This document shows positions 29,584-59,895 of a stretch of 64,000 nucleotides of DNA, piece by piece. Made by a program: the position numbers and the translations under genes. How positions within the stretch are numbered: position 1 is the first letter of the stretch; every line of letters begins with the position of its first letter. The notes below the pieces were generated by a model. It ran no database searches. It had not been told where the DNA came from and saw only the letters and a list, made by a program, of their open reading frames with translations. The DNA is from Candidatus Nomurabacteria bacterium. Its GTDB lineage: Bacteria > Patescibacteriota > Minisyncoccia > Phycocordibacterales > UBA9973. The stretch spans positions 25,174 to 89,173 of the forward strand of contig CALRAL010000003.1 in the NCBI GenBank assembly GCA_943350875.1, given 5' to 3'.

Positions 29584-29715
29584 TCCACTTTACTTTACTA
29601 AACTAAAGTAGATAGGAGGGGGGAATGGGAGTTTTTTTTAAAGGTCTTTCCTTGAAGGGGGAGCGTAGCGACGGGAAAGGTGAGGCCTTGGGGAGTTTTG
29701 TGGTAGACTTAAGGG

Positions 29716-30009
29716 GTGAAGAAGAAACCATCAAAATTAAAGTCTACAAAAGACAGGGTTATCAAATATTGTATTCTTTGTAGTAGTAAAATTAAGGTTA
29801 TTTTATATACTGACCGTTCTTATGTGGGTGGGTATTATTTTGGTAAGATTCCAATGTCTACAAAAAAAGAATGGGCAAGAGTTATGAAACTTGGAACAAG
29901 GAAATCAAAAATAGGGAGTTTAGATATTCAAGTCTTAAAAGAAGATCCAAAACCATATAAATATTTTGAGTATTGGGAATGTTTGAAGTGTTGCACGGAT
30001 GCTATTTGA
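29716..30009 (+). CDS. Small basic hypothetical protein with CxxC...CxxCC (zinc-ribbon-like) cysteines
   Basis: 97 aa with YCILCSS and WECLKCC, at the edge of the accessory island. Confidence 0.3.
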   Translation: MKKKPSKLKSTKDRVIKYCILCSSKIKVILYTDRSYVGGYYFGKIPMSTKKEWARVMKLGTRKSKIGSLDIQVLKEDPKPYKYFEYWECLKCCTDAI

Positions 30010-30143
30010 GCCTGTTTTTCTAGGTGTTTTTGTGGTAAAATGAATGTTTAATATAAAGAACAAATTAGATATCTAAAACTTATGATGATTACAAAATTGG
30101 TGAAAGTGGTTGGGATTTTAGTTAATAAACTTTTGAAATAATT

Positions 30144-33100
30144 ATGGCAATTACCAACATTGGAACAAATACATTATCTTCAAACCTAAAAACAATCTTA
30201 CCTGAGTGCGACAAGATTGATGCTTTAGTTGGCTATTTTTATTTTTCAGGGTTTAAAGATTTACACAATGAACTAAAAGATAAACAAATCCGTATTCTTG
30301 TGGGAATGGATATTGATAAAAAAATTATTGAAAAAGTATCAACGTTAAAAGAATTAAATTTAGACTCTTATTCTATAGATACTCACATAACTTCCCGATC
30401 AAGTGTTACTGAAGATTATATTGATAATTTCTCTCAAATTTTTAATGATAATGATTATTTCGATAACGAAGAATCACAAAATGCATTTGAAATATTTTTG
30501 AATAAAATAAAAGACGGTAGTTTGCAAATTAAGAAAACAGCTAAGGCTAACCACTCTAAATTTTATATACTACATAATAAAAATGGAGGCGGAATAGTAA
30601 TTGAGGGCTCAAGCAATTTAACGTTATCCGGATTGCGAGGACAAGCGGAACATAATAGAATCTTGACTGAAAAACATTATTACGATGATGATGTAAATAG
30701 ATTTGAAGAATGCTGGAACGATCAAGAGAATATAATTTTAACTAATATTGAATCAGCGGATAATTTTATAAAAGAAGTAAAAAGTAAAATTTGGTTATAT
30801 GCATTACCTGACCCACTGTTAATGTATTATAGAGTTTTAAATGAATATTTCTCAATTACTGAAATTGAGAATATGAAGACTCCTAAAAACATAACTGCTG
30901 GTAAGTTCTCTGATTTAAAATATCAAAAAGATGCGATTAATTTAGGTATTGATAGAATAAACAAATTTGGTGGTGTAATTATTGCAGATGTTGTTGGACT
31001 TGGAAAAAGTATTATTGCTTCAGCAATTGCACATAATTTGGGATTAAAAACTGTGATAATTGCTCCACCTCATCTTGAAGATCAATGGAATGACTATCGT
31101 TCTGATTTTAATTTTAACGGATTTGTTTACAGCACAGGTAAAATTGAAGAAGCCCTTGAAAGACATCAAAATGACGAAAAACTCCTCATTGTTTTAGATG
31201 AAGCACATAAACATAGAAATGAGGATACAGATAATTATAAACTTCTTCATAAACTTTGTGCCGGTCATCCTGTTATGGCTCTTTCTGCCACACCATTTAA
31301 CAATGATCCTAAAGATATTTATGCTTTGATAAAATTATTTAGTACACCCGGACAATCTACCATAAGGACAGTAGAAAATTTAAGCATGGCTTTCCATACT
31401 CTTTTTAAGAGATATAAAAAAGTTAGAAAAGATTTAAGAAAAACTAATGCAAAGGAAGAAAAGAAAGATGAAGTAAATAAAGAATCACATGAAATAGCAA
31501 AATATCTTAGAATAATGATCGAACCACTCATTATTCGTCGTTCCCGTAGAGATTTAGAAGAAATAGAAGATTATAAAAATGACCTAAAAAATCAAGGGGT
31601 TGCTTTTGCGAAAGTGAAAGAACCGGAATTGCTAGAATATCCACTTAACGGAATGTCAGACCTTTACATTAGAACACTTGAAAAAATATCACCGAATGAT
31701 AAAAGTGTAAGTTTTCGTGGTGTTCGATACAAGATATTAAGTTATTTAAAAGAGGGTTCAAATTTTGCTGAAAAATTAGTAGAAGATATTGATGATGATA
31801 GTATTTCTGCAGAAGAAAAAGTACAGCAAATTAAACAAGCTCAAGTAAACATAGCAAAATTTATGAGACGTTTGCTTGTGCGTAGATTTGAGAGTTCTGT
31901 TGGTGCTTTCAACATATCTCTTGAAAATATGATAACTTCTTCTGAAAAAATTCTTGAATGGTATAAAAATAGGCAAGAAATTCCAATATATAAGAAGGGT
32001 GAACTACCAACCGCAGAATATCTAAACGATTTAGATGAGGAAGAATTGGAGGGGGTTTTATCTAATTTGGACGCTAAAGGATTAATTCGTGTTCCCACTT
32101 CTGAATTACAATCTTCTTTTGAAAAACACTTAAATGAAGATATCGCATTATTAAAAAAAATAAAATCAGAATGGTTAGAAAATAATGAAGATCCTAAATT
32201 TGATTTCCTTAAAGAAAAAATTGCGAATTCTATATCAAGTGATTCTAATAGGAAAATTATAATTTTTACTGAATTTTCTGATACTGCAAATTATTTATTT
32301 AAAAAATTTAATGAGGATAATTTTAAGCGTATTTTCAAATATAGCTCAGAGGATTCTAACGATACTAATAAAAAGATTATTCGTTCAAATTTTGATGCTG
32401 GATTAGAAAAATTACAACAGGCTAACGATTTTGATGTAATTATCGCCACAGATGCAATTTCTGAAGGTTTTAATTTACATAGAGCAGGAAGTGTTATAAA
32501 TTACGATATTCCTTATAATCCAACAAAGGTTATACAGCGAGTTGGTCGTATTAATCGCATTAATAAAAAAGTTTTTGAAGAATTATATATTTTTAACTTT
32601 TTTCCTACATTTATTGGTGAAGAAGAAACCGGTATGCGTTCTATATCCACACTAAAAATGGATTTTATTCATGATCTTTTGGGTGAAGATACAAAAATCT
32701 TAACAAAAGAGGAAGACCTGAAAAATTATTTTGCTAAACAATATCAAGAAGAAAATACTAAAAATGATAGTTTGTCTTGGGATGCAAGATATAGAAATGA
32801 TTGGCTTAAAATAAAAGATGATCAAGATATAATTGCAAAAATTTCAAAGATTCCTCATAGATCAAGAATTGCTAGAAAATCTAAAGATATTTCTGGTGTT
32901 GTAGCATTTGCAAAAAAGGGTTCAAATTACATTTTTGCATTTGGTGAGAACCCTGAAAATGTTCGGATTGTTTCGCCTGAAGAAGCATTACCACTTTTCA
33001 ATGAAGTTGCTGATATGGAAAAATCTCTTGAGACAAGTATTAAATTTGAGCCCATCTATAAAATAGCAAAAGAACATATATTTAAGGACAATACCCACGC

Positions 33101-33404
33101 ACCGATAGACACCGGCAGAAGACAAGACGCTTTGTTGAAATTAACCCTTATCAAAGAAAACTACACACAAGCAGTTGAGTTGTGTAAAGATTTAGAGACT
33201 TTAATAAAAGATTTTGATGCGCTACCAAATGGGTTACTAAAAGATATTATTGACTTATCTATTGATAGAAATGATTATAGTAAGATTTTTAAAGAATTAA
33301 AAAATATGTTTCCTAATAATTATATTAAAAAGTTATTCCTAACAGCTGATAAAGCCAAAGATAATGGAAAACTTATTGTATTATCCGAAGAACTAATTGC
33401 ATGA
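30144..33404 (+). CDS. Fusion protein of a PLD-family (HKD) nuclease domain and an SNF2/SF2 helicase. Candidate restriction or DISARM-like DrmC+DrmD-type effector.
   Basis: 1086 aa. The N-terminus has the HKD motif NHSKFYILHNKNGGGIVIEGSSNLT. The SNF2 motifs are I (ADVVGLGKS), II (LIVLDEAHKHRN), III (SATPFNND) and V/VI (TDAISEGFNLHRAGSVINYDIPYNPTKVIQRVGRINR). It overlaps the downstream MTase by 4 bp. Confidence 0.75.
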   Translation: MAITNIGTNTLSSNLKTILPECDKIDALVGYFYFSGFKDLHNELKDKQIRILVGMDIDKKIIEKVSTLKELNLDSYSIDTHITSRSSVTEDYIDNFSQIFNDNDYFDNEESQNAFEIFLNKIKDGSLQIKKTAKANHSKFYILHNKNGGGIVIEGSSNLTLSGLRGQAEHNRILTEKHYYDDDVNRFEECWNDQENIILTNIESADNFIKEVKSKIWLYALPDPLLMYYRVLNEYFSITEIENMKTPKNITAGKFSDLKYQKDAINLGIDRINKFGGVIIADVVGLGKSIIASAIAHNLGLKTVIIAPPHLEDQWNDYRSDFNFNGFVYSTGKIEEALERHQNDEKLLIVLDEAHKHRNEDTDNYKLLHKLCAGHPVMALSATPFNNDPKDIYALIKLFSTPGQSTIRTVENLSMAFHTLFKRYKKVRKDLRKTNAKEEKKDEVNKESHEIAKYLRIMIEPLIIRRSRRDLEEIEDYKNDLKNQGVAFAKVKEPELLEYPLNGMSDLYIRTLEKISPNDKSVSFRGVRYKILSYLKEGSNFAEKLVEDIDDDSISAEEKVQQIKQAQVNIAKFMRRLLVRRFESSVGAFNISLENMITSSEKILEWYKNRQEIPIYKKGELPTAEYLNDLDEEELEGVLSNLDAKGLIRVPTSELQSSFEKHLNEDIALLKKIKSEWLENNEDPKFDFLKEKIANSISSDSNRKIIIFTEFSDTANYLFKKFNEDNFKRIFKYSSEDSNDTNKKIIRSNFDAGLEKLQQANDFDVIIATDAISEGFNLHRAGSVINYDIPYNPTKVIQRVGRINRINKKVFEELYIFNFFPTFIGEEETGMRSISTLKMDFIHDLLGEDTKILTKEEDLKNYFAKQYQEENTKNDSLSWDARYRNDWLKIKDDQDIIAKISKIPHRSRIARKSKDISGVVAFAKKGSNYIFAFGENPENVRIVSPEEALPLFNEVADMEKSLETSIKFEPIYKIAKEHIFKDNTHAPIDTGRRQDALLKLTLIKENYTQAVELCKDLETLIKDFDALPNGLLKDIIDLSIDRNDYSKIFKELKNMFPNNYIKKLFLTADKAKDNGKLIVLSEELIA

Positions 33405-36400
33405 TAAATTTTAATGATAAATATAATTATAATGAGTTTATAGATTTCTTATGTAACTTTCTACCGAATGACTTCAAGGAAATAGAAAAAGATATTGTTA
33501 TAAAAAAAGAAAGATATAAAGAAATTTCTAAAGCAAAAATACTTGGCTATTCAAGCTCTTTAGATTTGCATGTATTAGAAATGGATCATGCTCGTGAAAA
33601 TGACCCGAGAATTACGATTGCGACAGATGCTTTCAAAATACTTGCTGATAATTGGGTACATAAAGCTTTAGTAATCTTCAAGAACAGCACTTCAGATAAT
33701 TATCGATTTTCTTACTTAACAATATCTATAGATTTAAATGATAAAAATAAACCAATTAAAACATATTCAAACGCCCGCCGGTATTCTTTTTATCTTGGTT
33801 CCGGCGCAAAAATTAACACCCCAAAACAACAACTTGTTAGTAAGGGTCGAATAAAAGATTTAAATGATTTAGTAAGTAGATTTTCTGTTGAAGTTGTGAA
33901 TAAGCAATTTTACTTTGAGATTGCAAAATTCTTTGATGAACTTGTTTCGAGTGAGGATAAAAATCTAGCACTTCCGGGTATATCAGAAGAAGACACGAAT
34001 ATCAGAAAGAGTTTTGCTGTTCGGCTTATTGGTCGTATAATGTTTTGTTGGTTTTTGAAACAGAAAAAATCTGACAATGGTCAACTTATTCCTGATGAAC
34101 TACTTTCCTCAAAAACAGTATCGGATAGTTATTATCACAGTACTCTTGAACCATTATTTTTCGGCGTATTAAATACCAGCATTGAATCTCGAGATATTCG
34201 TAGTGATTTGTTTGATAAAGTGCCGTATCTCAATGGAGGACTGTTTAATCCTCAATCAGACGACTATTATGACCTAGATAGAGAAACTTTTACCTCGAGA
34301 CATATTAACACTCTTAAAATCAGTGATGACTGGTTCAAGAACTTCTTTGAGCTTCTCGAGACTTATAATTTTACAATTGATGAGAATACTGTTTTTGATC
34401 AAGAGCTTTCTGTTGATCCAGAAATGCTTGGAAGGATTTTTGAGAATTTGCTTGCAGAAATAAACCCAGAAACTGGAAGCAGTGAGCGTAAGCGTACGGG
34501 AAGTTTTTATACGCCACGTCAGATTGTTGAATATATGGTAGACCAGTCTTTGATTGAATATTTAAAAACAAAAACAGGGATTCAAGATAAAAAATTATCT
34601 GCTCTTGTTAGCTACGATTTAGCAGACGATACAGAGCACCCACTAGACGATAAGGATAAACAAGAAATAATAAACGCAATAGAATCTCTTAAAATTCTTG
34701 ATCCAGCTTGTGGTTCGGGGGCATACTCAATCGGTGCGCTTCAAAAAATTGTTTATATTCTTCAACAAATAGATCCAGATTGTAAATTATGGCTTGAGCA
34801 AAAATTAAAAGGTGTTCCAGAGTTGTATAAGAAAAAAATAATTGATGAAGTTAAATCGAACCCTTTTGACTACACACGGAAACTAGATATTATTAAAAAT
34901 TCAATCTTTGGCGTAGATATTCAGCCAATTGCTGTAGATGTTTCCCGTTTGAGATGCTTTTTGACACTTGTCGTTGAGTCAGAAGTAAATGATACAAAAC
35001 TAAACAGAGGGATAGAACCTTTACCGAACTTGGACTTTAAATTTGTCTGTGCAAATACTTTGATTAGCTTGCCAAAATCTCAATCTAGCAATCTTTTCGA
35101 AGACCATTCCGGTATCATCGAGCTTTCAAAAATAATGTCGGAATATTTCTCTTGCAATAGCCAAAGAAAAAATGAAATTAAACTTAAATTTACAAATTTA
35201 CAAAAAGAAATACTAGAAAAGACAATATCCGCTTTCGGTAAAAATACGGGAGAGCTAACTTTAAAACTTACAACTTGGAATCCATTTAGTAATAATTCAA
35301 ATTCTTGGTTTGACCCGGAATGGATGTTTGGGTTGGAGGAAAAGTTTGATGTGGTTATCGGTAATCCGCCCTATGTTGATTCAGAGACAATGGTAAAAGA
35401 TAACCCTGATTTGAGAAATTTGTATACTTTGCTTTACAAAACAGCTATAGGTAATTGGGATTTGTTTATCATTTTTATAGAGCAGGGCATCAATTTTCTA
35501 AGCAATTATGGAAATTTGTCATTTATCGTGCCTAACAAATTGATTGCTGCGAAATATTCTGAGTCTATTAGATTACACATGCAGACTAAAAATATAAAAT
35601 ACATAAGAGATTATTCTGATGTGAGAGTATTTAAGGAAGCGAGCGTGTATCCTATTGTTTTTCAGATATCGAACTCATTGAATTCAGATTCAAGCGTTAT
35701 CTTAACAAAAATGAAAGATATCGAAGAATATGAATTAATTAACAAAATACCCCATGCACTGTTTTATGCGGATGTATTTTGGGATAGGTATTTTATAAAA
35801 CCAGAAGCACTCAAGGTAATTATTAAAATCTCACAAAATCCTAAACTTGAAAAAATTAATGATTTAGTTTTGGGTGCAGCCACTGTTAATGAAGCATATA
35901 AATTAAAAGAAATTATTACTGAGGCAGAAATTGAAAAACAAGAATATAAAAAACTAATTAATTCCGGGACAATTGATCCATATACTTCTTTATGGGGTGA
36001 CAAAAAAACTCAATATATTAAATCGTCATATAAAGTGCCTGTGGTGGAAAATGACAAGCTAAATAAATTATTACCGAGACGATTTATTCAAGCAAATAGT
36101 GAAAAGCTTATTATTGCCGGGATGTCAAAGAGATTAGAGGTTTTCTATGATTCCGGTGAATACATTGCTGGTAAATCTACCACAATCATTTTAAATAATG
36201 AGAAAATTGACTTGTTATATTTACTTGCAGTTCTTAATTCAAAATTGATTTCTTATTGGTATAAGGTATATTTTAGTTCTTTGTCACTTGCTGGAGGTTA
36301 TTTGAGAATTAGTAATAACGAAATCAAAAAGATTCCAATTGTAGTGGCTAATAAAAAGACGCAAGAAGGTATAATTAAAATTGTTAACCAAATTCACGAT

Positions 36401-36514
36401 TGTAAAAAAGGAAGTAATAAAAATACAGACGACCTAGAGTCAAAAATTGATGAATTGGTCATGGATTTATACGGACTAAATGAAGATGAAAAAGAAATTA
36501 TTAGAAATTCGTAA
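33401..36514 (+). CDS. Large gamma-class N6-adenine DNA methyltransferase (Eco57I/type IIG/BREX-PglX-like) with a C-terminal specificity region
   Basis: 1037 aa with LGRIFENLL...GSFYTPRQIVEYMV, motif I LDPACGSGAYSIG and motif IV VIGNPPYV. It is translationally coupled to the PLD-SNF2 gene. Confidence 0.8.
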   Translation: MINFNDKYNYNEFIDFLCNFLPNDFKEIEKDIVIKKERYKEISKAKILGYSSSLDLHVLEMDHARENDPRITIATDAFKILADNWVHKALVIFKNSTSDNYRFSYLTISIDLNDKNKPIKTYSNARRYSFYLGSGAKINTPKQQLVSKGRIKDLNDLVSRFSVEVVNKQFYFEIAKFFDELVSSEDKNLALPGISEEDTNIRKSFAVRLIGRIMFCWFLKQKKSDNGQLIPDELLSSKTVSDSYYHSTLEPLFFGVLNTSIESRDIRSDLFDKVPYLNGGLFNPQSDDYYDLDRETFTSRHINTLKISDDWFKNFFELLETYNFTIDENTVFDQELSVDPEMLGRIFENLLAEINPETGSSERKRTGSFYTPRQIVEYMVDQSLIEYLKTKTGIQDKKLSALVSYDLADDTEHPLDDKDKQEIINAIESLKILDPACGSGAYSIGALQKIVYILQQIDPDCKLWLEQKLKGVPELYKKKIIDEVKSNPFDYTRKLDIIKNSIFGVDIQPIAVDVSRLRCFLTLVVESEVNDTKLNRGIEPLPNLDFKFVCANTLISLPKSQSSNLFEDHSGIIELSKIMSEYFSCNSQRKNEIKLKFTNLQKEILEKTISAFGKNTGELTLKLTTWNPFSNNSNSWFDPEWMFGLEEKFDVVIGNPPYVDSETMVKDNPDLRNLYTLLYKTAIGNWDLFIIFIEQGINFLSNYGNLSFIVPNKLIAAKYSESIRLHMQTKNIKYIRDYSDVRVFKEASVYPIVFQISNSLNSDSSVILTKMKDIEEYELINKIPHALFYADVFWDRYFIKPEALKVIIKISQNPKLEKINDLVLGAATVNEAYKLKEIITEAEIEKQEYKKLINSGTIDPYTSLWGDKKTQYIKSSYKVPVVENDKLNKLLPRRFIQANSEKLIIAGMSKRLEVFYDSGEYIAGKSTTIILNNEKIDLLYLLAVLNSKLISYWYKVYFSSLSLAGGYLRISNNEIKKIPIVVANKKTQEGIIKIVNQIHDCKKGSNKNTDDLESKIDELVMDLYGLNEDEKEIIRNS

Positions 36515-36577
36515 ATAACAGGAAAAATCACTGTAACCGGCGTAAGTGATTTTTCAAAACTTCAACATAAGAAGTTT

Positions 36578-36796
36578 TTAACCGCGTGGTGGAAATGGAT
36601 CGTTTCCAAAAGAGTTTCTTTCACGAATTTTGCCATCTCGTCCGTGGATGAGAAGTTCAACTTGGTATGCTATTGCAAGTGATGTACCAGAATCTATGAT
36701 TTCTGATTGTGTCTTTGCTGTAAATACCGGATATGGATTGTGTTCTTGTTTGAGTGCCCAGTTTTGTCCGTTTTTTACTACATGTAGATTACTCAT
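36578..36796 (-). CDS. DUF2188-like small protein
   Basis: 72 aa with the C-terminal LIHGRDGKIRERNSFGNDPFPPRG signature, which I recall as typical of the DUF2188 family. Called from memory of the family consensus. Confidence 0.35.
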   Translation of the reverse strand: MSNLHVVKNGQNWALKQEHNPYPVFTAKTQSEIIDSGTSLAIAYQVELLIHGRDGKIRERNSFGNDPFPPRG

Positions 36797-36951
36797 AATG
36801 AATTTGAATTAAAGTTTTATTATTTTAGTTCTGTAATTTTCATTTCTTCGATTTCAGTGCCGGTTTCTGGTAAGCCGAAATGTAGACCTACATTTGCATT
36901 ATAGCATATTTTTTATTGAATCCAAAATTTTGCCGACGAAGAGGGGGATTG

Positions 36952-37118
36952 ACTTGAACGAAGCTCATGAACTCTGGCAAGAGCTTTAACTTTAACTTCA
37001 CCACTCAGCTAGGCCTTACCTATCAATTAACAAGGCCCAAAATCAATCTACTTTACTCAACTAAAGTGTAGAATGGTTTTTGGGGTTCTGTGAATTATCA
37101 TTACTGTGATAGACTTAG
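36952..37118 (+). repeat. Direct repeat copy A of an approximately 170-bp repeat (AACGAAGCTCATGAACTCTGGCAAGAGCTTTAACTTT ... ATCAATCTACTTTACTCAACTAAAGTGTAGAATGG...)
   Basis: Approximately 85-90% identical to copy B at 37352-37520. It contains a degenerate CTAGGC..CCTA hairpin. Confidence 0.7.
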
Positions 37119-37127
37119 CAAGTGAAA

Positions 37128-37304
37128 GAAGAAAATAATGTTGCCTATATAGACGGAGCTAACTTGCACAATGGTGTGGAAACTTTAGATTGGGAATTTG
37201 ATTACAAACGCTTCAGAGTATGGTTAAAAGAAAAATACAGTGTTAAGCAAGCTTATTTATTTCTAGGATTAATTCCAAAATATAAAGATCTTTGAATAGT
37301 AAGA
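37128..37304 (+). pseudogene. Truncated NYN-domain gene fragment (VKEENNVAYIDGANLHNGVETLDWEFDYKRFRVWLKEKYSVKQAYLFLGLIPKYKDL*)
   Basis: I translated it by hand. It is homologous to the N-terminal 60 aa of the NYN protein at 10021..10542, has a GTG start and a premature stop, and is flanked by the 170-bp direct repeats. Confidence 0.45.
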
Positions 37305-37351
37305 ACCGTTCTTGCTATAGGACATGACTTCAAGAACTTATCGATGAAACT

Positions 37352-37520
37352 GGATTAGATGTAAACGAAGCTCATGAACTCTGGCAAGAGTTTTAACTTT
37401 CATTCTATGAATTGCTAGGCAAGACCTAGCAATTACAATTAACAAGGCCCAGAATCAATCTACTTTACTAAACTAAAGTGTAGAATGTTTTTTTGATTCT
37501 GTAAATCGTCATAGTAATTT
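37352..37520 (+). repeat. Direct repeat copy B of the approximately 170-bp repeat, containing the GCTAGGCAAGACCTAGC hairpin
   Basis: See copy A. Its internal hairpin is identical to the rpsR terminator core at 57466-57482. Confidence 0.7.
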
Positions 37521-37536
37521 TAATATTTCAGAGAGC

Positions 37537-37830
37537 TTATGATTTAGTCTTGAATGGTCGTTTGTTTGCTTCTTTTAGAATTCTAAGTGTTGCTTGTACT
37601 GAAAGGTTCTCGCTGGTAAGAAGCACTAATCTATCATTCAACTGATTAAGTAATGGGCTTAAAAACTCATCTGCCCATGATGGCGACAATGTCAAAACAC
37701 CAGCGAAATCTATTTCTAGTTCTTCGTCTTTAGGAAACTCACGCAAGGTCGGAGTAAATGCTTTGAAAGCCTCACTGCCCAATTCTCGTGATATTAATGT
37801 CTTTCCAAATTTTTCTAATTGTAATTTCAT
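37537..37830 (-). CDS. STAS-like DUF4325-type small protein, the putative partner of the upstream GHKL ATPase
   Basis: 97 aa with an anti-sigma-antagonist-like fold signature (ELEIDFAGVLTLSPSWADEFL). It is immediately downstream of 37855..38610 on the same strand. Confidence 0.45.
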   Translation of the reverse strand: MKLQLEKFGKTLISRELGSEAFKAFTPTLREFPKDEELEIDFAGVLTLSPSWADEFLSPLLNQLNDRLVLLTSENLSVQATLRILKEANKRPFKTKS

Positions 37831-37854
37831 ATATTTTAAAAATTATTAAACTAC

Positions 37855-38610
37855 TTAAAATTCTATTTTTGCTAAACAGCCTCGTACGATACGCTGACCA
37901 CGCGTAACATGAAACACTTTGTCTGGACTACTCATACGTACTTCGGCATCACCACTTTTATAAAATAAATCTATTGGCTGATCAGTAACGACTTCTCTGA
38001 CAAGTTTCAAACCGTTCCCGCGCTTCTCCGGCGCACGCCCAGAAATGAATTCTGTAAAGGCGACTTCCACGGCAGCGACATGGCTCGGAAGCTCCGGCCG
38101 AATTTGCCGTAATGTTTCTAAAATGCCCAATCCTCTATCGGCAAGAACAATGATCCGTTTTTCCAGATCGTAGCCAAAGAATATTCCCGCGGTGTCTGGC
38201 CATTTGCCTAAGTTGTGAGCAAACGAGTTATCACCAATCTCCCCAGTAATCAAAGTGATCAAAGAATACAACTGCTCAAACCCTGGCTTTCCCAATAATG
38301 CATTTTGCATCTTAATCAGTCTGGCATTAAAAATAGAACTTGTCGGACAGTAAAACGTCCCCGGGAACTCAGTCCCATTTTCTATCCAATCGGATGCAAA
38401 CTTTATCAAATCGCTAGCAAATATTTCCAAGTCTTTTTCACGGTAATATCGATGAGTACCCCCGTCCTTTTTAATCGGTAGCAGTTTACCGCTTTCGTCC
38501 CAACGACGAAGCGTTTGCAAGGAAATCCCTAGATATTCAGCTGCCTGGCTGATTGTAAGTAATTTTTCATCCATATAATTAAGGATACCATAATATACAA
38601 ATCTATACAA
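37855..38610 (-). CDS. MerR-type HTH fused to a GHKL (HATPase_c, RsbW-like) ATPase/kinase domain
   Basis: LTISQAAEYLGISLQTLRRWDESGKL is the MerR/excisionase HTH. The ATPase shows N-box ITGEIGDNSFAHN and G-boxes LADRGLGI and RGNGLKLV. The real start is probably the internal Met at about 38574, since the annotated start is TTG. Confidence 0.55.
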   Translation of the reverse strand: MYRFVYYGILNYMDEKLLTISQAAEYLGISLQTLRRWDESGKLLPIKKDGGTHRYYREKDLEIFASDLIKFASDWIENGTEFPGTFYCPTSSIFNARLIKMQNALLGKPGFEQLYSLITLITGEIGDNSFAHNLGKWPDTAGIFFGYDLEKRIIVLADRGLGILETLRQIRPELPSHVAAVEVAFTEFISGRAPEKRGNGLKLVREVVTDQPIDLFYKSGDAEVRMSSPDKVFHVTRGQRIVRGCLAKIEF

Positions 38611-38650
38611 CTAGAAGATAAATCTATACAAAAATATACCAATCTATACA
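38600..38650. promoter_or_regulatory. Three direct AATCTATACA repeats spaced 20-21 bp apart, immediately upstream of the MerR-GHKL gene
   Basis: Repeats at 38600, 38621 and 38641 have about two-helical-turn spacing, which is iteron- or operator-like. Confidence 0.4.
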
Positions 38651-38777
38651 TTTCTTAGTAAAAACTACCCTTAAAATAGTTTCGTATAATCAGCTAGGCC
38701 TTGCCTAGCAGTTTTGCTCGGTTTTAGGCTGATAACCGTGAAAAATGGCATTAAAAACACAGCTTTTCACGATTATG

Positions 38778-38805
38778 TTGACAAAAGCGTGAAAATGACT
38801 ATAAT
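38778..38805 (+). promoter_or_regulatory. Consensus sigma70-type promoter (TTGACA, 16-bp spacer, TATAAT) for the Fic gene, overlapped by three CGTGAAAA repeats
   Basis: TTGACA lies at 38778-38783 and TATAAT at 38800-38805. The CGTGAAAA octamer occurs at 38742, 38764 (reverse complement) and 38787. Confidence 0.55.
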
Positions 38806-38807
38806 AG

Positions 38808-39710
38808 ATGTATATGGCGAAAGTCCCTGCAGTATTTAATAAAATAAATTCTCTTCGCGAGAGGTACTGGAAAGCTTTCAATAACAAAGAATCTCTAATT
38901 AAACTTGTTAGCGAGTCAGAAATTGCTGAGCAAGTGTATAACTCAAATGCTATCGAAAATAGTACTCTTACACTTGAAGAAACAGAAAAAATTTTATTAC
39001 AGATTGACCTAGATCGATATATAAGTGAGCGCGAGATTTTTGAAGCCAAAAATCTCGCGCGAGTGGTGTCATATATTGAGAAGCGAGCAAAAGAACAGGA
39101 GTTAACACTTGAAGTTGTATTATCACTTCACAAGATGCTTATTTCAAATATTCGTGATGAAATTGCAGGCAGGTTTAGAAAAGAAAAAGAATTTGTGCGA
39201 GTGGGTAGTCACATTGCTCCCGCACCGCAAGAAATACTTGAGAGGTTGGGAAATATGCTCGCAGAATATAATGCAAATAATCATGAAAATATTGTAAAAT
39301 GTATTGCACGATTGCATTTAGATTTTGAGTATATCCATCCATTTATCGATGGCAATGGTTGTATTGGTCGCGCGCTTAATAATTATCTTTTGATTCGTGA
39401 AGGATTTGTCCCCATCAATATTAAATTTATAGATCGCAAAAAATATTATGATGCATTTAAAGAATTTGATGAAAAAGGTAAAATAGAAATAATGGAAGAA
39501 ATTGTTGCCAAAGCTCTGACCAATAGTTATCACAAGCGTTTGGCATATTTAGAAGACAAGAAAATTATAACATTAGTGGAATATGCAAAATCTCAAAAAA
39601 TTTCTCATTCAAATTTGATAAATAAAGCTAAACGACAAACTATTGAAGCTTTTATGGAACGAGGGATTTGGAAAATAGGAGTTGAGTATAAGAAAAAATT
39701 ATATGAATGA
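38808..39710 (+). CDS. Fic/Doc family protein (AMPylator or toxin-like)
   Basis: 300 aa with the canonical Fic motif HPFIDGNGCIGRAL. The start may be the ATG at 38814, giving a leaderless transcript. Confidence 0.8.
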   Translation: MYMAKVPAVFNKINSLRERYWKAFNNKESLIKLVSESEIAEQVYNSNAIENSTLTLEETEKILLQIDLDRYISEREIFEAKNLARVVSYIEKRAKEQELTLEVVLSLHKMLISNIRDEIAGRFRKEKEFVRVGSHIAPAPQEILERLGNMLAEYNANNHENIVKCIARLHLDFEYIHPFIDGNGCIGRALNNYLLIREGFVPINIKFIDRKKYYDAFKEFDEKGKIEIMEEIVAKALTNSYHKRLAYLEDKKIITLVEYAKSQKISHSNLINKAKRQTIEAFMERGIWKIGVEYKKKLYE

Positions 39711-42700
39711 AGAAAATGTAAAAAATAATAAATCAGAAGTAGCTCTCAGGGAGGAGAGGGTTTTGGAATTTTGGGAGCAAAATAAAATATTTGAAAAAGT
39801 TTCAAAAAAGGTAGCGAAGAAGGGTGACTATGTATTTTATGACGGTCCGCCGACGGCCAACGGCATGCCGGGGCTACACCATGTGGAGCCACAATCTTTC
39901 AAGGATTTAATTCCTCGATACAAAACTATGCGAGGGTATAATGTCTTGCGTAAAGCGGGCTGGGATACACACGGGCTTCCAGTAGAGCTTCAAGTAGAAA
40001 AAGCGCTTGGGCTAAAATCTAAAAAAGATATTGAAAAATACGGAGTAGAACTTTTTAATCAGAAATGCAAAGAAAGTGTTTGGCAATATAAAGCAGAATG
40101 GATGAAAATGCGTACTCGCATGGGTTTCTGGACTGATCTGGAGAATGCATACGTAACTTATACGAATAATTATATTGAAGCCTTGTGGGGAGTAGTGCAA
40201 AAGGCAGATGAGAGAGGATTCTTGTATAAAGATTTCAAGATCTTGCCTTGGTGCCCTCGCTGTGGGACAGCTCTCTCTAGCCATGAGCTCAATCAGCCTG
40301 GGGCATACAAAGATGTAAAAGATCTGTCTGTTTATGTGAAATTTAAAATTATTGGTGGCAATGATGCTTTTGCGGGGTCGCTGTCTCCGTCTGTTGACGG
40401 AGCGCTGCCTCTCGGCTCGTCAGCCTGCGAGACACCCCGACAAAAGCACATTGCCACCAATTTTTACATTCTTGCTTGGACAACAACACCTTGGACTTTG
40501 CCGGGGAATGTGGCTTTGGCAGTGGGGAATGATATTGATTACGTAAAAGTGAAATTTGGTGGGGAGATTTTGATTTTAGCAGAGGCTAGACTTTCTGTTT
40601 TGGGTGGCGAATATGAAATTTTGGAAAAATTGAAAGGCAAAGATTTAATTGGTTTAGAATATGAACCACTTTTTCCATATTTGTCCGCCCAAGGCGGATC
40701 CGCCTCTGGCGGAAAAGATTTTAGTGAAAGTATAAAAAATGCTTTTAAAATTTATCCAGCAGACTTTGTGACGACCACAGACGGCACAGGAGTGGTGCAT
40801 ACAGCTGTGATGTATGGAGTGGATGATTTTGAGCTTGGAACTAAATTAAATTTACCGAAATATCATCTCGTAAATGAAGAAGGTAAATTTATAAAAGGTA
40901 CAGGATTCTTGGAGGGGCGATATGTTAAGGAAGCTGACGAGAATGGCAAGCCGACACTCGCTGTGGACATCATTGATGACTTAACCAAGCGTGGACTTTT
41001 GTTTAAAAAAGAAAATCACTTGCACAGCTATCCACATTGTTGGCGTTGTGATACACCACTTATTTATTACGCTCGGATGTCTTGGTATTTTAAGATGAGT
41101 GCGCTACGTAGCCAATTAATGGCTGGAAATGAAAAGATACATTGGGAGCCAGAACATATCAAACACGGACGTTTTGGTGAGTGGCTTGATGGTATAAAAG
41201 ACTGGGCCATTTCTCGGGACAGATATTGGGGTACACCGATACCAGTCTGGCAGAAAAAAGATGGCACATATAAAACTATCGGCTCACTTTCAGAACTAAA
41301 AAAATATACTAAAAAGTCAGGTAATAAGTATTTTGTCATGCGACATGGGGAAGCAGAAAATAATATGGGAGAATTATATAAAGTTGATCCGACTCAAAGT
41401 TTTAATCTTACTGAAAAAGGGTGTCAACAGGTTTTAGAAAATATTAAAAATTTTAAAGAAAAAGTAGATGTTATTATTTCTTCCCCATTTGAACGAACAA
41501 GAGAAACTACAAAAATAGTTTGTGAATTTTTAGGTTTTCCGTTAGATAAAGTTATTTATGATGATAGAGTGCAAGAGTGGGAAGTAAGCTCTATGTTTAA
41601 TGGTAAGACACGTAAAGAGATGAAACAATATTATGATAATGATTATATGTATGCTCCACACGAAAGTCTTGCTGATGCAGAAAGTTTTATCCATGTTGTA
41701 AAAAGAACTGGGGATTTCCTTTATGACATAGAATCTAAATATAAAGATAAAACTATTTTACTTGTTAGCCATGCTGGGGCAGGCAGGGCTATGACGTTTG
41801 TCTCGAATGGAGCTACTTTTACTGATTTACCAAATAGACCAGATATAACCAAGATGCTAGATAATGCAGAAATCAAAAAACTTGATTTCGTGCCACTTCC
41901 TCACAATCAAAATTATGAACTTGATTTTCATAAACCATATATTGATGAAATAATTTTAGAAGAAAACGGAGAACAAATGTCTCGCACACCGGAGGTGATG
42001 GATGTGTGGTTTGATTCAGGGGCTATGCCTTATGCACAGAGTCATGTGTTAGGTACTCCGATGGACTTCTCTCCAGCCAAGGCAGACTACATATCTGAAG
42101 CGATAGATCAGACTCGTGGATGGTTCTATACTTTGCATGCAGTTATAAATTTGGTAAATAATAAATCAAGTAATGCTTTTAAAAATGTTATTTGTCTCGG
42201 GCATATTTTGGATGCGAATGGGCAGAAAATGTCTAAATCAAAAGGCAATGTAGTGGACCCATGGATGATGTTTGATAAATACGGGGCGGACACCCTCCGC
42301 TTATGGATGTATTCTGTGAATCAGCCAGGGGAGTCAAAGAACTTTGACGAGAAAAATGTTTTGGAATTAAATAGACAAGTTTTTGGCTTGCTTTATAATA
42401 TTGTGGCTTTTTATGAGCTTTATCGGGATAAAGATTTAGAAATTATACAAGGACAGTCCTTAAGAGAGTTTCCCCAAGGACTGTCCTTTAAAAATATTTT
42501 AGATATTTGGATTCTTGCTAGATTAAACGAGTTGATAGAACTCACTACTAAAAATCTAGATAGTTTTAAACTTTTAGAGCCGACTCGAGCTATGAAAGAT
42601 TTTATAAATGATCTCTCTACATGGTATCTGCGTCGTTCTAGAGATAGATTAAAAGATGAAGATAAAAATGCAAAACTTACACTGTATTTTGTATTAAAAA

Positions 42701-43347
42701 ATCTGGCAAAACTTATGGCACCATTTGCTCCCTTTTCTGCGGAAGATATCTGGCAGAAATTGAAAAATGAGGAAGATGTAGAAAGTGTGCATTTGGTAGA
42801 TTGGCCAAAAGTGTCAAAGGGCATCTTTGACATGTTTAGCAAAAAAGAGGAGAAAGTCTTGAAAAATATGCAAATTGTGCGTGATATTGTTTCTCTTGGG
42901 CTTGAAGCGAGGCAGAAAGCGGGGATAAAAGTCCGTCAACCGCTCGCTACGCTCAAGTGTAAAGTAGAAAGTGGAAAGTTGTCGAGTGAATACTTGGAAC
43001 TTATTAAAGACGAGTTGAACGTAAAAGAAGTATTATTAGAGCCTCGAGCCTCGAACCTAGAAACTAATGTAGAACTCGATACAAGAATAACTCCAGAATT
43101 AAAATCTGAAGGAGATTATAGGGAGCTTGTGCGAGCAATACAGGATATGAGGAAAAAGATGGGGCTGACTCCGAGTGATGTGGTGTCTTTCTCCTTTGAC
43201 ACAAATGAAGAAGGAAAAAAGTTAATCCAGAATTTTGAAAAGGAACTAAAAAAAGTAATTCTTGCTTCAGAAATAAAATTCATGGCAAATGATGGCGACC
43301 CAATCGTTATAGATGAACTAATATTTAAAATAAAAGTGGTAAAATAA
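39682..43347 (+). CDS. ileS: Isoleucine--tRNA ligase with an inserted histidine-phosphatase (PGAM-like) domain and two short in-frame palindromic-element insertions
   Basis: 1221 aa with HVEPQ (HIGH-like), TTTPWTLPGN, HKPYIDE, KMSKSKGN and the anticodon-binding domain. The phosphatase insertion is bounded by FVMRHGEAENN...SSPFERTRET...LLVSHAG at about 41300-41925. Confidence 0.9.
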   Translation: MSIRKNYMNEENVKNNKSEVALREERVLEFWEQNKIFEKVSKKVAKKGDYVFYDGPPTANGMPGLHHVEPQSFKDLIPRYKTMRGYNVLRKAGWDTHGLPVELQVEKALGLKSKKDIEKYGVELFNQKCKESVWQYKAEWMKMRTRMGFWTDLENAYVTYTNNYIEALWGVVQKADERGFLYKDFKILPWCPRCGTALSSHELNQPGAYKDVKDLSVYVKFKIIGGNDAFAGSLSPSVDGALPLGSSACETPRQKHIATNFYILAWTTTPWTLPGNVALAVGNDIDYVKVKFGGEILILAEARLSVLGGEYEILEKLKGKDLIGLEYEPLFPYLSAQGGSASGGKDFSESIKNAFKIYPADFVTTTDGTGVVHTAVMYGVDDFELGTKLNLPKYHLVNEEGKFIKGTGFLEGRYVKEADENGKPTLAVDIIDDLTKRGLLFKKENHLHSYPHCWRCDTPLIYYARMSWYFKMSALRSQLMAGNEKIHWEPEHIKHGRFGEWLDGIKDWAISRDRYWGTPIPVWQKKDGTYKTIGSLSELKKYTKKSGNKYFVMRHGEAENNMGELYKVDPTQSFNLTEKGCQQVLENIKNFKEKVDVIISSPFERTRETTKIVCEFLGFPLDKVIYDDRVQEWEVSSMFNGKTRKEMKQYYDNDYMYAPHESLADAESFIHVVKRTGDFLYDIESKYKDKTILLVSHAGAGRAMTFVSNGATFTDLPNRPDITKMLDNAEIKKLDFVPLPHNQNYELDFHKPYIDEIILEENGEQMSRTPEVMDVWFDSGAMPYAQSHVLGTPMDFSPAKADYISEAIDQTRGWFYTLHAVINLVNNKSSNAFKNVICLGHILDANGQKMSKSKGNVVDPWMMFDKYGADTLRLWMYSVNQPGESKNFDEKNVLELNRQVFGLLYNIVAFYELYRDKDLEIIQGQSLREFPQGLSFKNILDIWILARLNELIELTTKNLDSFKLLEPTRAMKDFINDLSTWYLRRSRDRLKDEDKNAKLTLYFVLKNLAKLMAPFAPFSAEDIWQKLKNEEDVESVHLVDWPKVSKGIFDMFSKKEEKVLKNMQIVRDIVSLGLEARQKAGIKVRQPLATLKCKVESGKLSSEYLELIKDELNVKEVLLEPRASNLETNVELDTRITPELKSEGDYRELVRAIQDMRKKMGLTPSDVVSFSFDTNEEGKKLIQNFEKELKKVILASEIKFMANDGDPIVIDELIFKIKVVK
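40351..40460. repeat. MITE-like 110-bp GC-rich element with perfect 13-bp terminal inverted repeats (ATTGGTGGCAATG / CATTGCCACCAAT), in-frame in ileS just upstream of TTTPWTLP
   Basis: The terminal and nested inverted repeats (CTCCGTC/GACGGAG) are visible directly. It encodes IGGNDAFAGSLSPSVDGALPLGSSACETPRQKHIATN. Confidence 0.7.
40685..40717. repeat. Family-4 palindromic element (CCGCCCAAGGCGGATCCGCCTCTGGCGGAAAAG), in-frame in ileS
   Basis: It shares GGATCCGCCTTGGGCGGAAAA with the copies at 57605-57628 and 62428-62451 and encodes SAQGGSASGGKD. Confidence 0.7.
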
Positions 43348-53607: not shown

Positions 53608-53611
53608 ATTA

Positions 53612-53636
53612 CACAGGGTTCCCCTGTGTAATTTAT
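53612..53636. repeat. REP-like 24-bp palindrome TTACACAGGGTTCCCCTGTGTAAT, copy 1
   Basis: Identical palindromes occur at 54228-54252 and 54941-54965, flanking the RAYT gene. Confidence 0.8.
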
Positions 53637-53650
53637 ATAAGACTTACAAT

Positions 53651-54202
53651 TTAATTAGCTGTACAAAAAAACTCTCTTACGCACCAAACTTTTCCATCTA
53701 CAGGCTGACTTATCGATTCGCTAACAAAAGATTTTGGCATTCTATGGTTACCATATTTTAAATTAAAAGTGTCCATCATTTGTTGCACTTTACCTGATTG
53801 TTTAAGTTCTGTCTCTACATTATCATGAGCTATTTGAGGTGTTTCCCCAAACAAAAGTGTTCCTCGTCTATCGAAATAGTAATCAGCTTCTTCTTTTTTA
53901 GATTTAACAAAATTGCAATGCCAAGTAAATTTAAACTTACTTACTCCTGATTCTTTAATAACCTCGATTTTTACCAATGGATTTTGGACTTTTGAAGGAT
54001 ATTGTTTTTTTAAAGTGTCTCCAACTATTTTTGCAAATTCATTCCCACTTTTATGAGCTTCTGCTCCATTTGTAGATTCAAATGTATATTCATTATGTTC
54101 TCGAAAATTCTTATCACTAAACGCATCTAGTGAACCAAAGATCGCCGTTCCCGCTATAATTTTACTTGTTTGTTTTATAAAATTTCTTCGTGATTCATCC
54201 AT
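53651..54202 (-). CDS. Tat-signal secreted hypothetical protein, lying between REP copies
   Basis: 183 aa whose N-terminus SRRNFIKQTSKIIAGTAIFG is a twin-arginine motif. Confidence 0.45.
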   Translation of the reverse strand: MDESRRNFIKQTSKIIAGTAIFGSLDAFSDKNFREHNEYTFESTNGAEAHKSGNEFAKIVGDTLKKQYPSKVQNPLVKIEVIKESGVSKFKFTWHCNFVKSKKEEADYYFDRRGTLLFGETPQIAHDNVETELKQSGKVQQMMDTFNLKYGNHRMPKSFVSESISQPVDGKVWCVREFFCTAN

Positions 54203-54227
54203 CTTTAAATTATATCACAACGAAGGT

Positions 54228-54252
54228 TATACACAGGGTTCCCCTGTGTAAT
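54228..54252. repeat. REP-like palindrome, copy 2, at the 5' flank of the RAYT gene
   Basis: ACACAGGGTTCCCCTGTGTAAT. Confidence 0.8.
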
Positions 54253-54267
54253 GTGTGGTATATTACA

Positions 54268-54966
54268 GTAATGGAAAGAAAAATACCTTTTGTGAAAGGT
54301 GAATACTATCATATTTATAATCGTGGCGTAGAAAAGAGAATTATATTTAAGACAGATTTTGATTATAAAAGATTTATTCTTTTGTTGCATGTTTTGAATA
54401 CAGACAAAAATCTTAAAATAAGGGATTTACTCCGGTCTAGTTCTTTTAATGAATTGTTAAAAATAAAAAATGATAATCCTATTGTGGCGATTGGATCATA
54501 CTGCCTGATGCCAAATCATTTCCATCTACTTATTACTCCTTTGGTGGAGGGAGGTATTTCAAAATTTATGTTGAAATTAGAAACTGCGTATTCTATGTAT
54601 TTTAATGGAAAAAATGAACGAAGTGGTGCTTTATTTCAAGGTGTGTTTAAATCGCAACATCTAGACAATGATGAGTATTTAAGATACATATATTCTTATA
54701 TACACTTAAATCCAGCAAAATTAAAAGATAAAAATTGGAAAGAGAATAGACCCAAAGATTCTAGATCTTTAAAAGAATTTATTGTGAGTTATAAATATTC
54801 TAGTATTGGAGAATATATTAATAATAACTTTACTATAGTAAATATTTCAGTTTTTCCTGATTATAGAGAGTTATATAAATCTAATAAGGAATTTTTCAAG
54901 ATTATGATTGATGATTGGTTGAATTATAAGGAGATTACAACAATTACACAGGGGAACCCTGTGTAA
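54268..54966 (+). CDS. REP-associated tyrosine transposase (RAYT; IS200/IS605 TnpA-like HUH Y1 transposase)
   Basis: YHIYNRGVEKRIIF, the HUH motif LMPNHFHLLI and Tyr-containing YIYSYIHLNPAK. I placed the start at 54268 (MERKIPFVKGEYY), whereas the ORF track begins at 54190. It is flanked by identical REP hairpins. Confidence 0.7.
   Translation, partial: VMERKIPFVKGEYYHIYNRGVEKRIIFKTDFDYKRFILLLHVLNTDKNLKIRDLLRSSSFNELLKIKNDNPIVAIGSYCLMPNHFHLLITPLVEGGISKFMLKLETAYSMYFNGKNERSGALFQGVFKSQHLDNDEYLRYIYSYIHLNPAKLKDKNWKENRPKDSRSLKEFIVSYKYSSIGEYINNNFTIVNISVFPDYRELYKSNKEFFKIMIDDWLNYKEITTITQGNPV
54941..54965. repeat. REP-like palindrome, copy 3, in the reverse-complement orientation, at the 3' end of the RAYT gene
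   Basis: ATTACACAGGGGAACCCTGTGTAAT overlaps the last RAYT codons. Confidence 0.8.
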
Positions 54967-57456: not shown

Positions 57457-57491
57457 GTCAAAGTTGCTAGGCAAGACCTAGCAACTTTGAC
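57457..57491 (+). terminator. Rho-independent terminator with a perfect 15-bp stem (GTCAAAGTTGCTAGG-CAAGA-CCTAGCAACTTTGAC) plus T-rich tail
   Basis: Immediately 3' of rpsR. The core GCTAGGCAAGACCTAGC recurs at 37405 and, in variant form, at 38699 and 59830. Confidence 0.7.
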
Positions 57492-57527
57492 TTTATATGT
57501 TAATAACTTTGCCTTTACTTCTCGCGC

Positions 57528-57538
57528 GGGGGGGGGGG
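57528..57538. repeat. Homopolymeric G11 tract upstream of a surface-protein gene
   Basis: GGGGGGGGGGG sits in an AT-rich intergenic region about 95 bp upstream of the ATG at 57632. Confidence 0.8.
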
Positions 57539-57604
57539 TTATACTTACCTTATGCTTAAAAGGTGTATCTTTTTGAGCTTTAAAATTAACTTATTTCAGC
57601 CATA

Positions 57605-59770: not shown

Positions 59771-59810
59771 ATATTATTAATATCAAGGACTACCCTTGAT
59801 ATTAATACAA

Positions 59811-59886
59811 AAATCCCTAAGGTTAGCCTAGGGATTTTGCGTTAGGTCTTGCCTAACGCACAAATACACAGGCGTTGCCTGTGTAT
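59811..59886 (+). terminator. Three consecutive GC-rich hairpins (CCCTAAGG..CCTAGGG; GCGTTAGGTCTTGCCTAACGC; GCACAAATACACAGGCGTTGCCTGTGTATTTGTGC) between the convergent PKD-protein gene and efp
   Basis: Stems seen directly. The third resembles the REP palindrome TACACAGG..CCTGTGTA. They are probably bidirectional terminators and REP-like elements. Confidence 0.55.
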
Positions 59887-59895
59887 TTGTGCTAA

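Follow-up and report, generated by a model that had tools for sequence, protein, structure and literature searches.

Direct repeats built of small-gene relics and hairpins bracket a truncated NYN gene in a defence island of a Candidatus Nomurabacteria genome

What do two direct repeats on either side of a decaying gene signify in a genome of the candidate phyla radiation (CPR), where repeats and mobile DNA are generally considered scarce? The question is raised by a 64,000-nt stretch of a Candidatus Nomurabacteria contig (CALRAL010000003.1, positions 25,174 to 89,173; hereafter the window, and all coordinates below are positions within it), in which a left repeat, copy A, and a right repeat, copy B, bracket the remnant of a gene of the NYN family. 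Defence islands are already known to contain direct repeats of gene relics together with hairpins that resemble repetitive extragenic palindromes (REPs), and the locus adds a further example. The explanation that we favour, with somewhat more than even confidence, is that A and B, both old and decayed, go back separately to one kind of composite junction module, made of the tail of a small open reading frame (ORF) and REP-like hairpins and placed between accessory-gene cassettes, and that the NYN cassette is being lost via a hairpin-adjacent deletion.

The repeats themselves are readily found. When the window was compared with itself by BLASTN, positions 36957-37101 and 37364-37512 formed an alignment of 151 columns with 80.8% identity (E ~1e-34), and a MAFFT alignment of A and B gave a mean column identity of 84% over 206 nt. 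The two repeats reported in the initial annotation are thus present, at 81-84% identity and not at the 85-90% given there. A repeat search delimited two ungapped blocks, one of 37 nt at 97% identity (36957-36993 in A, 37364-37400 in B) and one of 58 nt at 95% (37024-37081 and 37436-37493), with some 30 nt between them that are almost unalignable. Fainter likeness reaches left to ~36917 in A and ~37325 in B, and it fades by 37512 on the right side of B. The palindrome CTACTTTACT[C/A]AACTAAAGTGTAG does occur in both copies (37048-37071 and 37460-37483), but it does not end the repeat, as had been proposed, since the likeness runs about 30 nt further. The GCTAGGCAAGACCTAGC hairpin described for copy B was found at 37414-37430, with a degenerate counterpart in A.

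Could a mis-join or a duplicated repeat have produced this arrangement during assembly? Over the 2001 nt that span the locus, the sequence is 100% identical in two assemblies made independently, represented by three retrieved loci on an ENA MEGAHIT contig (L001, L004) and on a Logan contig (L005) that derives from a different run, so that the arrangement is the same in separate assemblies made by different assemblers. Moreover, the copies differ at 19% of their positions, which neither assembler collapse nor assembler duplication can explain. We consider the chance of an artefact negligible. The features of the locus are as follows.

36878..36895, plus strand: weak hairpin at the left edge of copy A (AAATGTAG-AC-CTACATTT), in the position equivalent to hairpin 0 of copy B; placed by alignment with copy B and locus L019
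36917..36989, plus strand: coding relic of copy A, an in-frame TGA (36917-36919) and then the last 22 codons of a 43-aa small ORF of the P0152 subtype (IQNFADEEGIDLNEAHELWQEL and stop; TAA at 36987-36989)
37008..37024, no strand assigned: hairpin 1 of copy A (GCTAGGCCTTACCTATC), degenerate, its loop the reverse complement of the copy B loop
37024..37081, plus strand: 58-nt block of copy A, 95% identical to that of B, holding hairpin 2 (TCTACTTTACTCAACTAAAGTGTAGA, 37047-37072) and then a T-run
37122..37295, plus strand: NYN gene remnant, GTG start, 57 codons, its TGA stop made by the deletion junction between 37293 and 37294
37296..37318, plus strand: hairpin 0 of copy B (ATAGTAAGAAC-C-GTTCTTGCTAT), z -2.9, beginning 2 nt past the deletion junction
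37325..37396, plus strand: coding relic of copy B, an in-frame TGA (37325-37327) and then the last 22 codons of the small ORF, P0143 subtype (LQELIDETGLDVNEAHELWQEF and stop; TAA at 37394-37396)
37412..37432, no strand assigned: hairpin 1 of copy B (TTGCTAGG-CAAGA-CCTAGCAA), identical at 21/21 positions to the hairpin at 57464-57484
37436..37493, plus strand: 58-nt block of copy B, holding hairpin 2 (37459-37484) and then a T-run

Several comparisons indicate a coding origin for the 5' part of the repeats. Both tails share one reading frame, ...NEAHELWQE[L/F] and a stop, and a protein search with the two of them led to a family of 43-aa acidic proteins, whose C-terminal half, ...[LI]Q.[LF].[DE]E.[GD][LI]D[VLI].EAHELWQE[LMF] and a stop, is matched by both. 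The copy A tail is frameshifted by one extra G in a GGGGG run; removal of this G restores IQNFADEEGIDLNEAHELWQEL, which agrees with P0152 at 19/22 residues. The copy B tail agrees with P0143 (MDDEVFEKAKEEDMSKDEAEELQELIDETGLDVDEAHELWQEL, a cluster of 65 members) at 20/22 residues. At the nucleotide level, the B tail matches intact genes of L014 and L015 with 88-90% identity across 69 nt, and the A tail is 76% identical over 63 nt to a P0152-type gene in L016. P0152 ends ...EIQNFADEEDLDLDEAHELWQEL, also written ...DDAKEIQNFADEEDLDLDEAHELWQEL; copy A shares IQNFADEE with it, and copy B (LQELIDET) shares LQELIDETGLDV with P0143. Among the 11 codons that differ between A and B, 3 differ synonymously and most of the others conservatively. 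A tblastn search of the window returned residues 22-43 only and no complete small ORF with its start and N-terminal half MDDEVFEKAKEEDMSKDEAEE, nor is there an intact copy in the window or in the 10 kb beyond. With only residues 22-43 left, and an in-frame TGA before each tail, both copies are gene fragments. The tail is not the C-terminus of the NYN protein, because full-length NYN homologues end ...SPYETKKCSILLKRTGVKISYI.DQKNILKK.

Two similar segments side by side could have arisen if a stretch comprising a module and NYN had been duplicated in tandem at the locus, its second unit then diverging and decaying. In favour of this, A and B are neighbours in direct orientation with one and the same internal order, and in both the truncation falls at a single codon, preceded by TGA. 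However, over their first 12 codons the two tails represent different small-ORF subtypes, each of them found intact elsewhere, which makes a recent local duplication unlikely. No trace of a second NYN gene follows copy B, and hairpin 1 of A and hairpin 1 of B resemble different dispersed copies in opposite orientations. The simple duplicated cassette suggested in the initial annotation is therefore set aside, the copies deriving from two different subtypes, and we regard a local tandem duplication as improbable.

Between the repeats, the ORF at 37122-37295 is homologous to the NYN gene at 10021-10542, as had been noted (42% identity over 48 aa, E 3e-15). The 57-aa product aligns only with residues 3-50 of the product of that gene, and it has no Pfam match to the full NYN domain (NYN / LabA-like nuclease, PF01936, ~130-145 residues). 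Given 42% amino acid identity and no similarity at the nucleotide level by BLASTN, the two NYN genes are distant paralogues of different subfamilies, and a recent duplication of the 10021 gene is not supported. The subfamily of the remnant (~165 aa) is 75-87% conserved across Paceibacteria; the nearest relatives of the remnant, as well as the further proteins identified, belong to metagenome bins of Paceibacteria, Nomurabacteria and other Patescibacteria (CPR).

The fate of the gene is revealed by a contig from a sister sample (L002), which is identical to window positions 34244-37293 and then reads ...KYKDLYTKLQEQGYTLVFKEVIYDTNGKAKGNCDADIVVLAMQDAYENRFDNSIL until the contig ends. This continuation is an uninterrupted NYN ORF, 107 aa of which lie within the contig, and its product is 87% identical to full-length NYN proteins of 165 aa. 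From base 37294 the window has GAATAGTAAG..., that is, hairpin 0 of copy B, instead of the NYN continuation. The deletion runs from NYN codon 57 (37293) to 2 nt before hairpin 0; at least 108 codons and the NYN 3' flank are lost from the window, and the junction creates the TGA stop. The 107-aa partial product has no exact match in the protein collection, and none of the cluster members is identical to it. Thus, the truncation of NYN is a recent deletion that is polymorphic between sister samples. The gene between the repeats is indeed a decayed remnant, truncated after codon 57 and intact as an ORF in L002, and the repeats bracket a former gene cassette. A deletion between the repeats, the other origin proposed for the locus, does not agree with the breakpoints, which are NYN codon 57 and 2 nt before hairpin 0, or with the NYN-bearing allele, in which copy A is intact.

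A separate feature of this NYN subfamily came to light in three unrelated gene contexts (L007 5490-5610, L009 5487-5610, L010 5120-5200), where the NYN genes share GAAAAAGCCCCCGATGGAGACGAACTCCATAAGGGTCTTTTTCGTAAGGAT over or just after the stop. It forms a long hairpin with a compensatory inner stem (GGAG/CTCC to GTGG/CCAC) and no Rfam match, and it is followed by a DnaA-box-like TTATCCACA, inverted in L010.

The position of the junction raises another possibility, namely that copy B (~37294-37529) is a non-autonomous unit, akin to a miniature inverted-repeat transposable element (MITE) or a REP doublet forming a hairpin (REPIN), which starts with hairpin 0 and inserted in NYN, removing the NYN 3' part, so that the intact allele never had a copy B. 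The junction lies 2 nt from hairpin 0, and the motif ATAGTAA stands at both ends of B (37296-37302 and 37511-37517). Hairpin 0 also adjoins broken small ORFs in other CPR genomes: in L019 (from a Saccharibacteria-labelled bin) it immediately precedes a small ORF truncated at its 5' end, and it occurs in three repeats upstream of another disrupted small ORF in L090/L091, in tandem in L090. Its four aligned copies are 100% paired, with two pairs changed on both sides. L006, the other contig of the low-coverage sample that carries the intact allele, ends at 37530, the right edge of copy B, and a Y1-transposase-like gene lies in the window. Against this, the sample is represented by short contigs (3.2 kb and 0.8 kb) that otherwise end at arbitrary places, so that the end at 37530 may be a break in coverage. 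No target duplication is present, the window has no further hairpin 0, and copy B recurs nowhere else in the 74 kb. The internal order of B is that of A, which occupies an ordinary intergenic position. We judge an insertion of copy B to be rather unlikely. At the left edge of A, the DNA fold of the weak hairpin is no better than that of shuffled sequence (z -0.95), and its sequence is unlike hairpin 0. Two pattern matches to hairpin 0 in viral contigs lie in unrelated sequence and look like chance.

Each hairpin of the 3' part of the repeats recurs independently elsewhere, at the following positions.

29587..29612, plus strand: third copy of hairpin 2 (ACTTTACTTTACTAAACTAAAGTAGA), 19/19 identical, E 2e-4
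38691..38711, no strand assigned: copy of hairpin 1 (CAGCTAGGCCTTGCCTAGCAG) between divergent MerR-type helix-turn-helix (HTH) and Fic genes, nearest to the copy A version
57464..57484, no strand assigned: copy of hairpin 1 directly after the gene of ribosomal protein S18 (rpsR)
59839..59859, no strand assigned: variant of hairpin 1 (GCGTTAGGTCTTGCCTAACGC) with compensatory changes, within a run of four intergenic hairpins

The hairpin 1 pattern, GCTAGG-N5-CCTAGC, has 8 matches in the 64-kb window where 0.63 are expected, of which 5 are credible, in both orientations. When the copies are oriented alike, the A-type and the B-type are reverse complements of each other; 92.5% of the stem cells are paired, and three pairs are changed on both sides. 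Hairpin 2 is present at 3 loci (0.58 expected), the third just past a 113-aa membrane ORF, where the GC content drops at the left edge of the island. The tally for the 64 kb is 5 for hairpin 1, 3 for hairpin 2 and 1 for hairpin 0, and a further 10 kb held none. Folding of whole copies as RNA gave z values of -1.7 (plus strand) and -0.5 (minus strand) for A, and -3.0 and -4.1 for B; these values are due to the individual hairpins and not to a common global fold. Covariance models of Rfam gave no match at the gathering score in the window or the related loci, and a relaxed-threshold scan of the locus gave a single match at chance level (E 2.4). A 24-mer from the repeat had 0 matches in a scan of GTDB genomes, BLAST against phages and plasmids gave no match, and scans of viral contigs yielded nothing for the small ORF or hairpin 2.

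Two further intergenic spacers of the window deserve mention. At 59780-59892, four different perfect or near-perfect hairpins follow one another in one 110-nt spacer, in a cluster like the bacterial interspersed mosaic elements (BIMEs) discussed below; it includes the hairpin 1 variant and a variant of a transposase-associated hairpin. Shortly past the hairpin 1 copy that follows the S18 gene, the spacer contains a run of ~11 G (57527-57540), which could be prone to slippage.

Could the repeats be the scars of an integrative element? In this explanation, A and B would be sites of the attL/attR type, left by an element that used the 3' half of the small ORF as its target and carried in NYN, or successively genes like those of restriction-modification systems and NYN. 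Direct repeats from the 3' part of a gene do flank accessory genes in a low-GC island; hairpin 2 occurs three times in direct orientation, at 29.6, 37.05 and 37.46 kb; the truncation point in L019 is similar; and a protein with an excisionase-type HTH is encoded next door. However, the segments so bounded have no integrase, resolvase or transposase in or beside them, no junction has an intact small ORF, the repeats are merely 81% identical, and NYN genes of other genomes stand without such repeats. A domain search of the long ORFs of the window returned no integrase, resolvase or reverse transcriptase, and no recombinase lies between or next to the repeats. We therefore think attachment scars very unlikely. 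The related proposal that the repeats are the ends of a mobile element carrying the NYN gene fares no better, since the repeats are absent at 4 NYN loci in other genomes, NYN is absent at ~28 loci that bear the small ORF, and no recombinase is nearby.

Other known arrangements were rejected. A pair of template and variable repeats of a diversity-generating retroelement would have its mismatches confined to adenines, and the 63 mismatches between A and B spread across all base pairs (17 fall at A in each copy); the window has no reverse transcriptase domain. A terminus site of the dif/Xer type was dismissed, since neither a strand switch nor a skew turnover coincides with the locus. For an integron attC site, the repeats contain one RYYYAAC and zero GTTRRRY core sites. 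Finally, the small ORF is not a plausible antitoxin to NYN, the two genes being neighbours nowhere else.

We return to the explanation by two decayed junction modules. Read 5' to 3', the module would consist of the left-edge hairpin (clear in B, weak in A), the TGA, the last 22 codons of the small ORF, the REP-like hairpin 1 and the 58-nt block, itself a second imperfect hairpin with a T-run. Such modules would lie at junctions between accessory-gene cassettes, where their hairpins may serve for termination or insulation, or may be both targets and products of an activity that mobilises hairpins, and where they could supply short homology and secondary structure as cassettes are gained, lost or truncated. 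The NYN cassette would currently be undergoing such a loss, with a deleted segment that starts at NYN codon 58 and stops 2 nt short of hairpin 0, probably through slippage or cleavage associated with the hairpin. This explanation draws on the composition of the module, the distinct subtypes of its two tails, the recurrence of the hairpins, the uninterrupted NYN allele, the location in a low-GC defence island, the frequent breakage of the small ORF in other genomes and the presence of a transposase-like gene in the window.

Several observations weigh against it. Both tails are cut at the identical codon, with the first 21 codons gone, each behind a TGA, which one ancestral truncated unit would explain more easily than two independent decays. 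Full modules number only two in ~74 kb of genome (the window and a further 10 kb), so that the notion of a junction module is built from two full copies and some partial ones, and in the other genomes the small ORF was never seen with the 3' hairpin part next to it. No site passed a consensus terminator scan, which we attribute to the AT-rich stems. L002 stops inside the NYN ORF and so covers no copy B of the intact allele. Lastly, the hairpin that flanks the transposase-like gene of the window, TACACAGGG..., differs from hairpins 0, 1 and 2.

That gene is an ORF at 54190-54966, between the genes for methionyl-tRNA synthetase and TatD, which resembles Y1_Tnp/REP_Tyr_transpos (an IS200-type Y1 or REP-associated tyrosine transposase, RAYT). 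It scores 33 bits against a Pfam cut-off of 23, which it passes, and 37.9 against an NCBIfam equivalog cut-off of 80, which it fails. Its presence makes hairpin-mobilising machinery plausible in this genome. In the segment 53604-54968 the ORF is bracketed by three TACACAGGG-N3-CCCTGTGTA hairpins (53610-53630, 54230-54250 and 54945-54965), the downstream one with an inverted loop, and a fourth variant lies 5 kb off at 59865-59885. The ORF and its flanking hairpins have the appearance of a RAYT and its cognate REP within a CPR genome.

How does the locus compare with known systems? REPs and their mosaic clusters (REP/BIME) are mobilised by RAYTs. The hairpins of the window resemble them in being short imperfect palindromes of 17-26 nt that are only intergenic, occur in both orientations, are sometimes clustered (59780-59892) and keep their stems through compensatory changes, with a RAYT-like Y1 gene flanked by hairpins in the same window. 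They differ in their small copy numbers (3-5 per 64 kb) and in the palindrome at the RAYT-like gene, which is not hairpin 0, 1 or 2, as a REP with its cognate RAYT would require; and whereas REP clusters are not known to contain coding relics, the repeats of the window do. The attL/attR scars of genomic islands that integrate at a gene 3' end share with our locus the direct repeats from a gene 3' end that bracket accessory genes in a compositionally distinct defence island, but the locus lacks a recombinase and an intact target gene, and its repeats are 81% identical and come from two gene subtypes. As in the attC cassettes of integrons, imperfect palindromes separate single-gene cassettes; unlike integrons, the window has no IntI-type integrase, and its cassettes are of mixed orientation. 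A fourth comparison is with mobile promoters, homologous upstream sequences that stand before unrelated genes. The 43-aa ORF likewise lies 17-22 nt before very different genes, with a -10-like box between, and is present or absent as a precise ~140-nt unit (L011 and L064). Unlike a mobile promoter, the propagating unit would be a conserved protein-coding ORF under purifying selection, and the window keeps only the tail of the ORF, with hairpins following it instead of a -10 box.

The small ORF was followed further in other genomes, at ~30 loci. The family, annotated only as hypothetical protein in Paceibacteria and Nomurabacteria, has no Pfam, NCBIfam or PADLOC model. A scan of GTDB with a profile of the small ORF was swamped by degenerate matches, with 3 loci confirmed, and a scan of JGI metagenomes gave 69 loci, about two thirds of which are an unrelated flavobacterial gene that shares PEAHELWQD. 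The -10-like box upstream of quite unrelated genes stands between the stop of the small ORF and the next ATG. The small ORF is remarkably often disrupted at these loci: it is 5'-truncated in L019, with a cut point similar to that of the repeats, and in L062; it is broken by short insertions in L059/L066 and L090; and it is internally deleted in L064, with only ...HELWQEL left. These disruptions place the tails of the window in a wider pattern of 3' relics in repeat-rich intergenic DNA.

Two sets of loci illustrate the behaviour of the small ORF. An insertion of ~45 nt made of two hairpins (GGCCGCGC...GCGCGGC and then ATGATTTCGCAAAATCA) lies in the small ORF once in L051 (150-200) and twice in L083 (minus strand), each time in place of 9-14 nt of the ORF. 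L011 (4440-4560) and L064 (reverse strand, 5660-5900) are syntenic and 88% identical at the nucleotide level, and they differ by the small ORF as a clean unit of ~140 nt between shared genes of 116 aa and 281 aa; L064 also retains a 24-nt relic of another copy upstream. One may speculate that the 43-aa ORF is a self-propagating CPR mini-cassette of ~140 nt whose 3' end doubles as the promoter of the next gene, which moves precisely, is hit by hairpin elements and leaves 3' relics. Copies and relics would then be exchange points for defence and other cassettes, in an integrase-less cassette system of reduced genomes. We give this bolder idea little weight.

The surroundings of the repeats form a low-GC defence island, with genes typical of such islands. 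GC content is 28-33% between 29.5 and 36.5 kb and 36-42% in the flanks; over the whole window it is 36%. All three stop codons are in use, and the other genes of the window are ordinary housekeeping genes. The NYN family of the remnant was counted as defence content via HEC-09/NYN models.

29716..39710, no strand assigned: defence island
30144-33404: HKD+SNF2 helicase, within the island
33401-36514: type IIG-like methyltransferase, within the island
36578-36796, minus strand: DUF2188/PDC-S16, within the island
37537-37830, minus strand: DUF4325 gene, within the island
37855-38610, minus strand: gene of an HTH-excisionase-like 251-aa protein, within the island
38808-39710: Fic gene (SoFic/PDC-S04), within the island

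The two minus-strand genes at 37537-38610 form a unit wedged between copy B and the Fic gene, and they may be a defence or regulatory pair: the 251-aa protein combines an excisionase/MerR-type HTH (mad1-like in PADLOC) with an uncharacterised C-terminal part, and its partner is a STAS-like DUF4325 protein of 97 aa. Where the low-GC island begins on the left, an ORF of 97 aa (29716-30009) has two CxxC pairs, zinc-ribbon-like, and no Pfam or PADLOC match; the region of its start (GTGGTAGACTTAAGGGGTGAAGAAGAAA) is loosely like that of the NYN remnant (GTGATAGACTTAGCAAGTGAAAGAAGAAA). The isoleucyl-tRNA synthetase gene at 39682-43347 encodes a His_Phos_1 (histidine-phosphatase) domain that occupies residues 551-718 and splits the catalytic domain into two halves, an insertion also seen in the precomputed domains of the matching ENA contig.

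The locus is thus a small piece of genome wear, a cassette of a defence island caught during its loss and bracketed by repeat debris. It provides direct population-level evidence that an accessory nuclease gene, NYN, is polymorphic for presence. It also points to a highly conserved, unannotated family of 43-aa proteins of Patescibacteria, which stands before unrelated genes and is unusually often disrupted, and to families of REP-like hairpins, one of them common to distant CPR genomes. A literature search on the 43-aa ORF family and its hairpin elements found nothing relevant; the family and the hairpin elements that repeatedly disrupt it seem to be undescribed, and they are a more novel lead than the repeats. 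If the modules are points of cassette exchange, they would help to explain the turnover of defence genes in tiny genomes.

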